Of a stretch of 64,000 bases of DNA, positions 45,686 through 47,442 are shown piece by piece. This DNA comes from an uncultured Chloroflexia bacterium (GTDB lineage: Bacteria > Chloroflexota > Dehalococcoidia > DSTF01 > WHTK01), in NCBI GenBank assembly GCA_963768705.1, contig CAVYJE010000025.1, forward strand, positions 161,341-225,340. The letters are read 5' to 3'. Made by a program: the position numbers and the translations under genes. Every line of letters begins with the position of its first letter. The stretch's first letter is position 1. The notes under the pieces were generated by a model. The model searched no databases and was not told where the DNA came from. It saw nothing but the letters and a program-made list of their open reading frames with translations.

Positions 45686-45713
45686 TTGACATCTGGAACG
45701 ACCGTTCTATAAT
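45686..45713 (+). promoter_or_regulatory. Perfect consensus sigma-70-type promoter TTGACA-N16-TATAAT, 9 nt before the TcmP-like ATG
   Basis: TTGACA is at 45686-45691 and TATAAT at 45708-45713. The predicted start site lies about 2-3 nt before the ATG at 45723, so the mRNA would be effectively leaderless, and no SD sequence is present. Confidence 0.6.
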
Positions 45714-45722
45714 TCATCCACT

Positions 45723-46505
45723 ATGCCAAGGATCGTGGGCGACTGGACCCGGGACAAACTTCGAATCCTGCAGACCTATCTACCAGGATATCTTCAGGCG
45801 ACAACAGCGGCTCGCGAACGTATTTACATCGATGCCTTCGCGGGGCCAGGCACAAATCGTCTGGAGAGTTCCGGCCAAGTTATCGATGGCTCCCCGCTGA
45901 TCGCCTTGAAGGCTCGAGCGCAAAACGAGACCGAGTTTAGCCGCTACTTTTTCATTGAGCGAGATCCCCATCTAGCGGATGAGCTAAGGGCGAACATCCA
46001 GACGTACTTCCCATCGCGCCGGATAGAGGTGATTACGGGAGACGTAAATGTAGAGCTTCCTCGGGTTGTACGAGGCCTACCAAAGCAATCGCCGACGTTT
46101 GTTTTCCTGGATACGGAAGGCATTGATCCTCAGTGGAGAACAATTGTCTCAATCTCCGACTGGCGTGTTGAGTTTCTCATCAACTTTCCACTTGGGATGA
46201 GCATCAATCGGAATGCGGACAGCCGGAAGACCTTGGAGTACTTTGGAACGGACGAATGCCTTGATCTGCTCAGGCGCAGTGACTCGGGCCGTACCCGGGC
46301 CCTACTAGACCTCTATAAGAGTCGTCTCGCAGCTCTTGGCTTTCTGTATACGACCGAGAATGATCTCTTGATCAAGACCATAGCCAACGTGCGGCTGTAC
46401 TACCTTGTGTTCGTCAGCAAGGTCGAGCCGGCGCAGACCATTATGAACTGGGTTTTCAGACAGCCTGACGTGCGGGGGCAAGGGCGTCTTGATCTCCAGG
46501 GTTAG
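45723..46505 (+). CDS. TcmP-like protein (three-Cys-motif partner protein family; Rossmann methyltransferase-like)
   Basis: Intact 260-aa ORF with W-x3-K-x6-YL at the N-terminus, then IYIDAFAGPG, FIERD, VFLDTEG and a C-terminal helical part. G+C is clearly lower than the flanking sequence. Confidence 0.7.
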   Translation: MPRIVGDWTRDKLRILQTYLPGYLQATTAARERIYIDAFAGPGTNRLESSGQVIDGSPLIALKARAQNETEFSRYFFIERDPHLADELRANIQTYFPSRRIEVITGDVNVELPRVVRGLPKQSPTFVFLDTEGIDPQWRTIVSISDWRVEFLINFPLGMSINRNADSRKTLEYFGTDECLDLLRRSDSGRTRALLDLYKSRLAALGFLYTTENDLLIKTIANVRLYYLVFVSKVEPAQTIMNWVFRQPDVRGQGRLDLQG

Positions 46506-47226
46506 GCATTTCATCCCAGGTAGTCTGGTCGAGAAGACGGCCACTTTTCTTCTTGCCCAGTTTGTTGCCTGCTTCATCGTGTGTCCCCCACTGCTTGAAG
46601 AAGAACGGCACGCCAGCTCTCTTGCATTGTTCACGGACTGAGCGAACCCATTCCACACTCATAGGTCGGGCCCGGTGACCGCTCTCGCCTCCAACGATGA
46701 CCCAGTGAATGTCAGTCAAATTCAAGTCATTCAACGGCCCCAGTAGTGGTTCGCAGGACAGGAACCTAACCTGCGCGGGCACCTCGCGGAGCCAATCGAT
46801 ACGCGATGTCCAACGCTGGTTCTCGACTGATACGCCGACCCAGACGTTGGGAGGGAACGGCAACTCATCCGCCAAGCCAGCCAAGCGTTCGGGTCTCTTT
46901 GTTAGTAACTGGAAGGTGTGCCAGTCGGCAGCTTCCATCGTGGCGAATACGCCTTTGATGAATTTGTCTGGCACGTCTTTGTGGAAAAGGTCGCTCATGC
47001 TGTTGACGAAGATGAGCTTCGACTTCTTCCAGGTTAGCGGCTGTTGGAGTCGCTCATGGCGCAGGGTGAGGTCAAAGCCTCGCTCGTATGGATGATCGGG
47101 AACGCCTCTAAAACGCTCGGCGAACGTCTTCGCATAGCAGTTCGCACATCCCGGGGACACCTGGGTGCACCCGGTCACGGGGTTCCAGGTTGCTTCTGTC
47201 CACTCGATGTGACTGTTAAGGCTCAT
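46456..47226 (-). CDS. DUF5131 / phage Gp37-Gp68 family three-Cys-motif protein
   Basis: Intact 256-aa ORF opening [28 protein letters not shown] (C-x5-C-x2-C), then [28 protein letters not shown] and FFFKQWG. It overlaps the 3' end of the TcmP-like gene by 50 bp. Confidence 0.75.
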   Translation of the reverse strand: [256 protein letters not shown]

Positions 47227-47320
47227 AGCACGCCTGTTCTATGGTGGCACAGTATGCCCACAAACGCAAAGTACGCGTGCGAGCCGCACACTGTCCAGCG
47301 GGGCGGGGAATTCCAGGTAA

Positions 47321-47352
47321 TCAAAACGCACGCCGCGAAATCGGGCGTGCGC
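47321..47352 (-). terminator. Rho-independent terminator of tRNA-Gly
   Basis: Minus-sense GCGCACGCC-CGATTTCGC-GGCGTGCG followed by TTTTGATT. Confidence 0.65.
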
Positions 47353-47367
47353 TTTAGCGTCGCGGGT

Positions 47368-47442
47368 TGGAGCGGGAGACGAGATTCGAACTCGCGACCC
47401 CCTCCTTGGCAAGGAGGTGCTCTACCACTGAGCTACTCCCGC
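47368..47442 (-). tRNA. tRNA-Gly: tRNA-Gly (anticodon GCC), CCA encoded
   Basis: Minus-sense GCGGGAGTAGCTCAGTGGTAGAGCACCTCCTTGCCAAGGAGGGGGTCGCGAGTTCGAATCTCGTCTCCCGCTCCA folds as a cloverleaf: 7-bp acceptor stem, anticodon loop TTGCCAA and T-loop TTCGAAT. Confidence 0.95.

Follow-up and report, generated by a model that had tools for sequence, protein, structure and literature searches.

The window analysed here is a stretch of 64,000 nucleotides from an uncultured Chloroflexia bacterium (contig CAVYJE010000025.1, positions 161,341 to 225,340 of the forward strand), and the subject of this report is a pair of convergent genes that it carries at 45686-47442. The first gene, tcmP, encodes a three-Cys-motif partner protein, and the second belongs to the DUF5131 (phage Gp37/Gp68) family. 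A first-pass annotation of this DNA had described the pair as a horizontally acquired islet beside a tRNA gene, with a possible role in nucleic-acid modification or phage defence. The features of the locus are the following (SAM, S-adenosylmethionine).

45723..46505, plus strand: tcmP, 260 aa; three-Cys-motif partner protein with a predicted RlmJ/Trm1-like, SAM-binding Rossmann fold
46456..47226, minus strand: DUF5131 / phage Gp37-Gp68 family gene, 256 aa; presumed [4Fe-4S]/SAM radical enzyme
46456..46505, no strand: 3'-end overlap of the convergent tcmP and DUF5131 genes, 50 bp; encodes the low-confidence C-terminal tails of both proteins
45686..45713, plus strand: tcmP promoter TTGACA-N16-TATAAT, 12/12 match, 9 nt to the ATG, leaderless-type
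45696..45707, no strand: candidate LexA (SOS) operator of Gram-positive type, GAAC-GACC-GTTC, in the promoter spacer and abutting the -10 hexamer
47228..47239, minus strand: second, imperfect LexA-like box, GAAC-AGGC-GTGC on the minus strand, ending 1 nt before the DUF5131 ATG
46526..46551, plus strand: terminator-like hairpin and T-run, 20 nt past the tcmP stop and within the DUF5131 coding region; weak evidence
47368-47442, minus strand: tRNA-Gly(GCC), its 3' end facing the islet
47323-47355, minus strand: hairpin with a 12-bp stem, followed by TTTT on the minus strand; fits the tRNA-Gly gene's own terminator

Most of what had been described for the two genes was recovered. The tcmP open reading frame (ORF) contains the W8-x3-K12-x6-Y19-L20 signature, the IYIDAFAGPG segment (34-43) and VFLDTEG (127-133), and the convergent arrangement with a 50-bp overlap of the 3' ends is as reported. 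For the DUF5131 gene, the coordinates and the length stand, whereas the cysteine motif given as C-x5-C-x2-C is C-x6-C-x2-C (C20, C27, and C30). The islet is indeed low in G+C, being 0.53-0.60 over 45550-47350 and 0.62-0.71 on both sides; the gene pair has 55.1% G+C against 65.3% for the remaining window, and its G+C at third codon positions (GC3) is 0.61 and 0.66, compared with 0.92 in the neighbouring gene of a ThrC-family pyridoxal phosphate (PLP) enzyme. Also, the islet is bounded by the 3' end of tRNA-Gly(GCC) with a terminator of its own, as claimed. With regard to the hairpin at 46526..46551, the count of terminator-like sites in the region is not above the shuffled expectation. Of riboswitches and other RNAs, looked for in the islet and in the leader of the ThrC-family gene, the tRNA alone turned up.

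Candidate LexA operators in the window and in related modules

The promoter reported for the first gene is a perfect one (12 of 12 positions), and the absence of a Shine-Dalgarno sequence together with the 9-nt gap to the ATG fits a leaderless tcmP mRNA. The candidate LexA operators, on the other hand, were missed. The promoter reads TTGACA-TCTG-GAAC-GACC-GTTC-TATAAT, in which GAAC-N4-GTTC corresponds to the LexA box of Gram-positive bacteria (PMC3323433, PMC4234289). This box (45696-45707) is the only exact GAAC-N4-GTTC in the 64-kb window; because the shuffled expectation is 0.75 exact boxes per window, it is the placement inside a 28-nt promoter that counts.

Related loci (L numbers) come from a scan of 185,579 species genomes with a TcmP alignment, which yielded 259 confirmed relatives, 79 loci being taken for counts; the query was the closer TcmP alignment, which biases these 79 loci toward YIDAFAGP-like motifs. 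The close clade is defined by a TcmP at least 52% identical to that of the window, and comprises metagenome-assembled genomes (MAGs) of Dehalococcoidia/Chloroflexota. The tcmP promoters compare as follows, from the -35 to the -10 hexamer.

Window: -35 TTGACA, TCTG, GAAC, GACC, GTTC, -10 TATAAT
L005: -35 TTGACA, ACGC, GAAC, GCCC, GTTC, -10 TATCAT
L091: -35 TTGACA, CAGG, GAAC, AAAA, GTTC, -10 TATGCT
L002: -35 TTGACG, AATA, GAAT, GCCT, GTTC, -10 TATGAT

In these four modules, the half-site bases are conserved at 31/32 positions and both hexamers are kept, whereas all 8 free spacer positions vary. In L094, which lies at a contig end, the right half of the box is visible. Moreover, a bona fide lexA gene of a clade member (L012, with LexA_DNA_bind and Peptidase_S24 domains) has an exact GAAC-ACTC-GTTC just after its TTGACA-N17-TATCTT promoter, which fits lexA autoregulation and indicates that the clade uses the GAAC-N4-GTTC motif. 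For the second box, at 47228-47239, one-mismatch boxes are common in the window (24 found, 22.6 expected), so that it is supported only by the conservation of its placement in L005, L091, and L094. From these alignments, LexA would bind at 45696-45707 and the module would be induced by DNA damage.

The same can be seen in a second lineage that uses a different LexA motif. An exact GTTC-N7-GTTC, the published alphaproteobacterial LexA motif (PMC3323433), is found in 8 of 15 alphaproteobacterial DUF5131->TcmP operons, 17-32 nt before the DUF5131 start, with only 5 other matches in the 262 kb of those loci. Alsobacter metallidurans CGMCC 1.12214 (L049) is a carrier with such a box, and the Methylobacterium carriers L036, L037, L040, and L041 have no exact one. 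Two properties of an SOS-regulon member are then present: a box of the type used by the lineage that overlaps the promoter (between -35 and -10 in the window), and its retention both in orthologues and, as the other motif, in the second lineage. In addition, tcmP of a planctomycete (L080) has a bona fide lexA 139 nt upstream, and recA lies within ~3-4 kb of the pair in two Dehalococcoidia loci (L043 and L063). No Cheo-type boxes were found in the Gordonia phage and Deinococcus plasmid copies described below. In several phyla, SplB-like radical SAM genes are already established as part of the SOS regulon, having been recognised through LexA sites that conform to the motif of each group (PMC3323433, PMC8565304, PMC3765255). 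Together, the operators suggest a shift of the likeliest role of the pair from defence toward the DNA-damage response.

A separate upstream element is present in loci L014-L023 (SAR202/Dehalococcoidia), where GTGACA-N9-10-TTGCGCGG occurs ~60-110 nt upstream of both tcmP and the DUF5131 gene. Its copies form inverted repeats flanking the module, and it could be the operator of another regulator or a relic of the ends of a mobile unit.

TcmP has the fold of RNA base methyltransferases and an altered catalytic motif

The assignment of the 260-aa protein to TcmP is firm, with 157.1 bits to TIGR04474 (cut-off 53; E 8e-46) over residues 7-245; no Pfam family matched. In its AlphaFold2 model (pLDDT 91.6), the top Foldseek match is Escherichia coli RlmJ (E 6e-8, probability 1.0, TM 0.58), Trm1 being next, and TYW2 and Trm5b are further structural relatives. 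A profile of 106 diverse TcmPs searched against the Protein Data Bank (PDB) also places RlmJ on top with a marginal E of 0.02, and in this alignment both families have a common Y-x-D-x-x-A-G-x-G (motif I), an identical GSPLIA, and the D-P of motif IV. Across the TcmP family, K12, Y19, D37, G41, G43, G56, S57, D107, N109, and D130 are invariant or nearly so, and the motif I residues D37, G41, and G43 are at least 90% conserved among the 106 representatives; the C-terminal tail of TcmP has a conserved G-Q-x-x-L. The SAM-binding motifs are then retained, namely motif I, E79 after strand 2, GD107xN, and D130, and the protein has the class I SAM-dependent methyltransferase fold together with motif I.

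The catalytic motif IV is a different matter. Neither (D/N/S)-P-P-(Y/F/W) nor the DPFG of Trm1 is present in the window TcmP, which has D130-T-E-G. For the family as a whole, motif IV is DPxG, with P131 in 93% of members and an aromatic next residue in only ~25%, and in the window clade it is mostly D-T-E-G, the proline being lost too. Of the methyltransferase-like partner proposed in the first-pass annotation, the fold is upheld by the RlmJ match and the catalytic motif of an amino-methyltransferase is absent. Because TcmP keeps the SAM-binding motifs and has lost the motif IV aromatic, it is taken here as a docking and SAM-binding subunit: from the sequence and the model, it looks like a SAM-binding protein that docks nucleic acid, in which methyl transfer may or may not persist.

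DUF5131 is a conserved three-cysteine protein listed among the radical SAM enzymes

The 256-aa protein is an equally clear member of its family, with 357 bits to PF07505 (gathering cut-off 28.9; E 7e-107), its residues 4-241 aligning to profile positions 1-243 of 243; it also matches phrog_2045. The family (COG4422) is large, with >8000 relatives in one search. The cysteines of C20-x6-C27-x2-C30 are invariant in 58 diverse DUF5131 members, as are an S-x-E-P-L segment and G-E-S-G. The ratio of nonsynonymous to synonymous substitution rates against related copies is ~0.1 (0.08-0.13); these values are for DUF5131 only, synonymous sites are saturated, and the ThrC control, which looked unreliable, was not used.

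A radical SAM nature had been considered probable by the first-pass annotation, and it holds in part. DUF5131 is listed as a subgroup of the radical SAM superfamily, in Megacluster-5-2, beside the spore photoproduct lyase (SPL) family in 5-3 (RadicalSAM.org; PMC9477430), and the invariant cysteines agree with this. However, the canonical C-x3-C-x2-C motif is absent, the spacing being C-x6-C-x2-C, and PF04055 is not matched. Variant cysteine spacings exist among accepted members of the radical SAM superfamily. The AlphaFold2 model (pLDDT 84) shows alternating strands and helices in a beta/alpha barrel-like arrangement, and its best Foldseek matches in the PDB are MiaB (E 5e-3) and SPL (probability 0.94-0.97, TM 0.42). 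These are weak: no match reaches E 1e-3 and other TIM barrels score alike. Sequence and profile searches against the PDB gave no solved relative. No significant match of DUF5131 to the SPL family itself was obtained: Pfam gave none (PF20903/COG1533), and its comparison by hhalign with SPL-like partners of TcmP (probability 0.9%, E 0.06) and with a TcmP-SPL fusion was not significant in either case, so that homology between DUF5131 and SPL is not supported by profile comparison. Nor is it a member of TIGR04471 (radical SAM mobile pair protein A), with 86.4 bits (E 2e-24) against an equivalog cut-off of 355.

A radical-SAM-type partner accompanies TcmP across genomes

The co-occurrence of the two families was borne out in the scan: DUF5131 adjoins TcmP in 70/79 genome loci, and a gene of radical-SAM type is beside TcmP in 75/79. 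The difference corresponds to alternative partners in 5 loci, 4 of the SPL family (PF20903) and 1 radical SAM protein of PF04055, mostly with 4-nt overlaps. The other 4 loci are uninformative (1 disrupted by an insertion sequence (IS), 2 at contig ends, and 1 with a DUF5131 fragment), and no intact locus is without such a gene. Moreover, a natural fusion of 634 aa (P0296) joins a TcmP domain (36-278) to an SPL-family radical SAM domain (371-546). A radical-SAM-type partner is then present at every assessable TcmP locus, and it is swappable within the SPL/DUF5131 neighbourhood.

The layout of the 70 scored pairs is variable, with 25 DUF5131->TcmP operons, 22 TcmP->DUF5131 operons, and 23 convergent pairs, the co-directional operons having 1-4-nt start/stop overlaps in both gene orders. 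Within the close clade, 23/24 loci are convergent, and in 21 of those the 3' ends overlap by 6-61 nt. This layout is also found on a Deinococcus plasmid, in Synechococcus phage Ssp-JY39 (46-nt overlap), and in Gordonia phages BaxterFox and Fairfaxidum. There is no recurrent third gene: the 138 immediate neighbours examined (~37 loci) match 151 Pfam families, each in at most 2 neighbours.

The IS-disrupted locus is worth describing separately. In L026, an IS-type integrase gene (rve; 10764-11345, minus strand) immediately follows a tcmP gene lacking a radical SAM partner, and the module was probably disrupted by this insertion. A LexA-like Peptidase_S24 gene lies 3 kb upstream there, with no match to the LexA DNA-binding domain in Pfam.

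The module is mobile, and a rearrangement placed the tRNA beside it

Horizontal acquisition, as claimed in the first-pass annotation, is supported as regards the module itself and not as regards the tRNA as a demonstrable integration site. In 60/64 loci, the flanks exceed the pair in G+C, with a median difference of 6 points and host G+C from 38% to 73%, and the neighbours of the pair change from locus to locus. It is on plasmids in 17 records, and among 50,697 phage records TcmP is found in 5 and DUF5131 in 180. The module is mobile.

Integration of the islet at the 3' end of tRNA-Gly(GCC) in a site-specific manner, a reading invited by the placement of the islet beside the tRNA in the first-pass annotation, is very improbable. 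The islet does border on the tRNA 3' end and its G+C is low, and tRNAs lie ~50-400 nt from the pair in L033, L040, and L041 (tRNA-Gly(TCC)), L044 (tRNA-Met), and L057 (tRNA-Leu). Nonetheless, no integrase or recombinase was found in or beside the islet, and no direct repeat of the tRNA-Gly 3' end. A related 451-kb contig (L002) is syntenic with the window on the side of the ThiS, NIL-domain, and ThrC-family genes (ThrC-family gene, 82.6% nucleotide identity) and carries the pair at the same ThrC-side position, with a MarR gene and a major facilitator superfamily (MFS) transporter gene beyond DUF5131 and no tRNA; L005 and probably L094 share this arrangement (pair at the ThrC side or next to MarR, without a tRNA). 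The MarR-MFS genes that flank DUF5131 in L002 (11735-13934) and L094 are in the window at 6599-8751, ~39 kb off and inverted, which argues that a rearrangement, and not integration, brought the tRNA next to the pair; the order of these genes indicates a breakpoint between DUF5131 and tRNA-Gly. As a route of acquisition, tRNA-targeted integration is largely refuted by these observations (no integrase, no repeat, and relatives without the tRNA). On the other hand, the most similar module, L091 (TcmP 76% identical), is at a different genomic site, and the syntenic copies are only 65-67% identical, which argues for exchange of the module between lineages over simple vertical descent.

The lineages with a tRNA near the pair are unrelated to each other, the tRNA-Gly(TCC) loci being those of two Methylobacterium and one unclassified proteobacterial MAG, and their number exceeds a chance expectation of ~2%.

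Regarding the surroundings in the window, the neighbours of the pair are housekeeping or metabolic genes (Na+/H+ exchanger, TrkA, PLP enzyme, short-chain dehydrogenase/reductase, TetR, dehydrogenases, DnaJ). The cluster of ThiS, NIL-domain, and PLP-enzyme genes is conserved (43193-45383 in the window, 7201-9592 in L002) and resembles a set for sulfur-carrier-protein-dependent amino-acid synthesis; its ThrC-family PLP enzyme has an N-terminal zinc-ribbon matching Pfam NinF, and the leader of ~300 nt 5' of the PLP gene has no Rfam match. Beyond the islet, a 388-aa ORF (48499-49665, plus strand) has an HELGH metalloprotease-type motif and a signal- or anchor-like N-terminus, with no Pfam family. 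Two more ORFs, 40718-41293 and 57655-59133 (both plus strand), have GC3 values of 0.55 and 0.59, the norm for the window being 0.85-0.92, and may be further foreign or mis-called genes.

Copies in phages and plasmids

In the temperate Gordonia phages BaxterFox and Fairfaxidum, the immunity repressor gene and tcmP are transcribed together, and DUF5131 converges on tcmP. For BaxterFox (L084, KU963263.1), an unannotated full-length DUF5131 gene is present at 5981-6709 on the minus strand, its product 52% identical to the window protein (E 6e-81); at this position the deposited annotation instead lists three small ORFs on the same strand (gp39-41), probably called in error. The DUF5131 gene is convergent with gp42, the tcmP gene, and gp42 in turn shares 4 nt with the immunity repressor gene gp43. 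For Fairfaxidum (L088), gp43 (4237-5433, minus strand), annotated as 'methyltransferase', is a TcmP member (hidden Markov model E 3e-25) directly after the immunity repressor gene gp44, and gp42, the DUF5131 gene, overlaps gp43 by 11 nt in convergent orientation. A paper on defence by Gordonia phage CarolAnn makes no link to the tcmP/DUF5131 genes. By contrast with these pairs, the solo DUF5131 genes of mycobacteriophages, in lytic-module contexts, are among genes for RecT, HNH, RuvC, replication initiators, and DNA methylases.

The Deinococcus plasmid copy adjoins genes for a large DNA methyltransferase and an integrase. On pSymA of Sinorhizobium meliloti 1021 (L085), tcmP (SMa2243; 9001-9855, plus strand) and DUF5131 (11207-11959, minus strand) are convergent and 1.35 kb apart, with SMa2243 close to the validated defence gene hna (SMa2245). 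In a published RNA-seq table, both hna and SMa2243 are ~two-fold higher in the nolR+ strain (PMC12445080).

Proposed function and its rivals

We favour, with a probability of about 0.45, the reading of the pair as a mobile module, inducible in the SOS response, for a SAM-dependent enzyme of two subunits by which DNA is repaired or chemically processed. This is preferred because DUF5131 is placed in the megacluster of SPL, because SPL-family enzymes are interchangeable with it as the partner of TcmP, because the LexA boxes follow the motif of each lineage, and because the phage context is one of DNA replication. From this combination we infer that the two proteins form a complex, that Fe-S/SAM radical chemistry is involved, and that DNA is the substrate of the reaction. 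In such an enzyme, DUF5131 would be the catalytic subunit, a radical-SAM-superfamily protein of the SPL neighbourhood whose C-x6-C-x2-C would hold a [4Fe-4S] cluster, with SAM being cleaved to the 5'-deoxyadenosyl radical, and TcmP would be the obligate partner, folded like RlmJ and Trm1, which are base-flipping RNA methyltransferases. In undamaged cells, LexA would sit on GAAC-N4-GTTC in the tcmP promoter, and probably also on the weaker box at the DUF5131 start; upon DNA damage, RecA-stimulated cleavage of LexA would release both convergent, leaderless-type genes, and the enzyme would then repair or chemically process a DNA lesion or base.

A broader proposal, which we advance tentatively and consider rather unlikely, is that the TcmP-DUF5131 and TcmP-SPL variants together constitute an unrecognised, widely mobile branch of the SOS response, a two-subunit radical-SAM enzyme for DNA repair or editing. 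Here, a decayed RlmJ-type methyltransferase would flip out and present a damaged or modified base, and the SPL-related Fe-S enzyme would resolve it by radical chemistry. A more radical variant would be a 'radical-SAM restriction', with TcmP marking self DNA and DUF5131 attacking unmarked DNA.

Several points weigh against the repair enzyme. LexA also governs toxins, mobile-element functions, and prophage genes, and SOS control is no proof of a repair role. The boxes are present in a subset only, 5 close-clade modules of roughly 25-30 and the 8/15 alphaproteobacterial operons, and other subclades show a different common upstream motif. Support for the radical SAM fold of DUF5131 is weak (Foldseek E at least 5e-3, no PF04055, non-significant hhalign), and the structural relatives of TcmP work on RNA, not DNA. 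Moreover, the pair is listed by PADLOC as a defence candidate, from genes embedded in known defence loci, and temperate Gordonia phages have it in their immunity modules, where prophage-encoded defence is typically located. No experimental study of either family was found in the literature searched, in agreement with the earlier statement that neither is known to have an experimentally defined function.

Anti-phage defence is the main rival, and we consider it unlikely while giving it serious weight. The module would then be similar to a restriction-modification (R-M) system, with TcmP marking self nucleic acid and the radical enzyme damaging or modifying unmarked DNA of the invader, or it would act through an antiviral modification or product. 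Both window proteins match PADLOC candidate (PDC) models, PDC-M41A (E 2e-29) for TcmP and PDC-M41B (E 6e-111) and PDC-M30B (E 1e-107) for DUF5131, with the pair as a whole corresponding to PDC-M41A/B and PDC-M30A/B and the genes being adjacent, as in the component definition. These candidates are predictions from the recurrent embedding of genes in known defence loci ('guilt by embedding'), which the window does not reproduce, its copy being neither in nor next to known defence genes; of the earlier suggestion of a phage-defence role, the match to the candidates then stands, and the pair lies among housekeeping genes, with no defence island, here as in four related loci. The surroundings of other copies are more favourable to defence in individual cases, such as the co-transcription with the immunity repressor gene and converging DUF5131 in BaxterFox and Fairfaxidum, the DNA methyltransferase and integrase beside the Deinococcus plasmid copy, and hna near SMa2243 in S. 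meliloti. Also, a few neighbours match the PADLOC models of DrmD/HmaA, BrxH, MTase, and PDC-S15, but these defence-like genes are a small minority of the 138 immediate neighbours. The mobility of the module and its lower G+C than the host in 60/64 loci agree with defence, and in its convergent arrangement, with a strong promoter driving the methyltransferase-like gene, the pair is reminiscent of some R-M systems. However, TcmP is without the canonical motif IV, no nuclease is present, and repression by LexA is atypical of constitutive innate defence systems. No published test of PDC-M30 or PDC-M41 was found in the literature searched.

Two other explanations appear improbable. One is accessory RNA modification, in which TcmP would dock rRNA or tRNA and DUF5131 would carry out the radical step, as MiaB, RlmN/Cfr, and TYW1 do, to give a hypermodified nucleoside. 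The best structural relatives of TcmP are the rRNA and tRNA methyltransferases RlmJ, Trm1, TYW2, and Trm5b, the best single Foldseek match of DUF5131 is the tRNA methylthiotransferase MiaB, and the cooperation of a radical SAM enzyme with a Rossmann enzyme is known from wybutosine synthesis. Nevertheless, housekeeping RNA-modification genes are not distributed in this sporadic, mobile, low-G+C manner, with copies in phages and plasmids, the LexA boxes and the proximity of lexA and recA point to DNA, the alternative partners are of the SPL family, whose characterised member works on DNA, and the phage context is DNA replication and recombination. The other explanation, with similarly poor prospects, is a selfish module maintained by its own spread, either a module of addiction or toxin type triggered by SOS or a DNA hypermodification of phage origin that protects mobile DNA. 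This would agree with a minimal cassette of two genes that takes its promoters and operators along to different sites (L091 and the window), and with the low GC3 that persists where diverged relatives hold the same ThrC-side position; convergent overlapping transcription could provide antisense control, and LexA-controlled toxins are known (PMC4234289). But no resemblance to known toxins or antitoxins is seen in either protein, strong purifying selection acts on both as enzymes, with numerous invariant positions, and the translationally coupled operons suggest a stoichiometric complex and not an antagonistic pair.

Significance

DUF5131 (COG4422) is a large family of radical-SAM type without a known reaction, and TcmP is its named but unexplained partner. 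The pair is already known as a pair and catalogued as a candidate; the literature searched did not contain the SOS link, the RlmJ-like nature of TcmP, the swapping of SPL partners, or the recurrence of the convergent layout. The lineage-matched LexA operators in two phyla, together with an RlmJ-like TcmP and alternative partners of the SPL family, make the function of DUF5131 directly testable. If the SOS link is true, a new mobile radical-SAM module would be added to the DNA-damage response, and it would be a caution against taking matches to PADLOC 'PDC' models as defence systems. If the pair is a repair enzyme, it would represent a new enzymatic route to the direct reversal or processing of DNA lesions, common to bacteria, plasmids, and temperate phages, whereas under defence it would be a new enzymatic type of immunity.

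Comparison with known systems

The closest catalogued counterparts of the module are PDC-M41 (A+B) and PDC-M30 (A+B) of PADLOC, which consist of the same two families in adjacent genes (A, 2e-29; B, 6e-111 and 1e-107). Unlike the loci on which these candidates are based, the window copy is not embedded in a defence locus, and it carries a candidate LexA operator. The radical SAM mobile pair A/B (TIGR04471/TIGR04470) is likewise a mobile two-gene set around a radical-SAM-like protein, but the window DUF5131 is below the TIGR04471 threshold (86 versus 355), so it is not a member.

For TcmP alone, the comparison is with RlmJ (23S rRNA m6A2030, DUF519) and Trm1, with which it has in common motif I, GSPLIA, a D-P in motif IV and, at the N-terminus, a helix bearing a conserved Lys. 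However, RlmJ has DPPY and an inserted helical subdomain and acts alone on rRNA, whereas TcmP has no such aromatic and is accompanied by a radical-SAM-type partner throughout; at the sequence level, the relationship is marginal (E 0.02).

Among two-gene modules under LexA, COG4277 is a radical SAM protein paired with COG1573. The COG1573-COG4277 operon, LexA-controlled and proposed to act in DNA base excision repair, is reported in Verrucomicrobia, Alphaproteobacteria, and Bacteroidetes (PMC8565304). It is likened here to TcmP-DUF5131 by description, the families being other ones and the partner being uracil-DNA-glycosylase-like and not of methyltransferase fold.

With respect to TIGR04474 (TcmP) and PF07505 (phage Gp37/Gp68, COG4422) in general, the window pair is full-length in both and has the adjacency that gave TcmP its name. 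It differs from the wider families in that its clade is convergent with a 3' overlap instead of an operon, and in its motif IV, DTEG versus the DPxG found in 93%.

Finally, the SplB-like proteins (COG1533/PF20903), SOS members in Alpha- and Betaproteobacteria, Verrucomicrobia, and Bacteroidetes, fall into one radical-SAM megacluster with DUF5131 (RadicalSAM.org), and the genes of both have LexA boxes of the lineage's own motif (PMC3323433, PMC8565304). Moreover, SPL-family enzymes replace DUF5131 as the partner of TcmP in four loci and one fusion. On the other hand, DUF5131 has C-x6-C-x2-C and SPL has C-x3-C-x2-C, DUF5131 is ~100 residues shorter, and there is no significant sequence or profile match between them. 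Canonical SplB works alone, whereas DUF5131 comes with TcmP as its partner.

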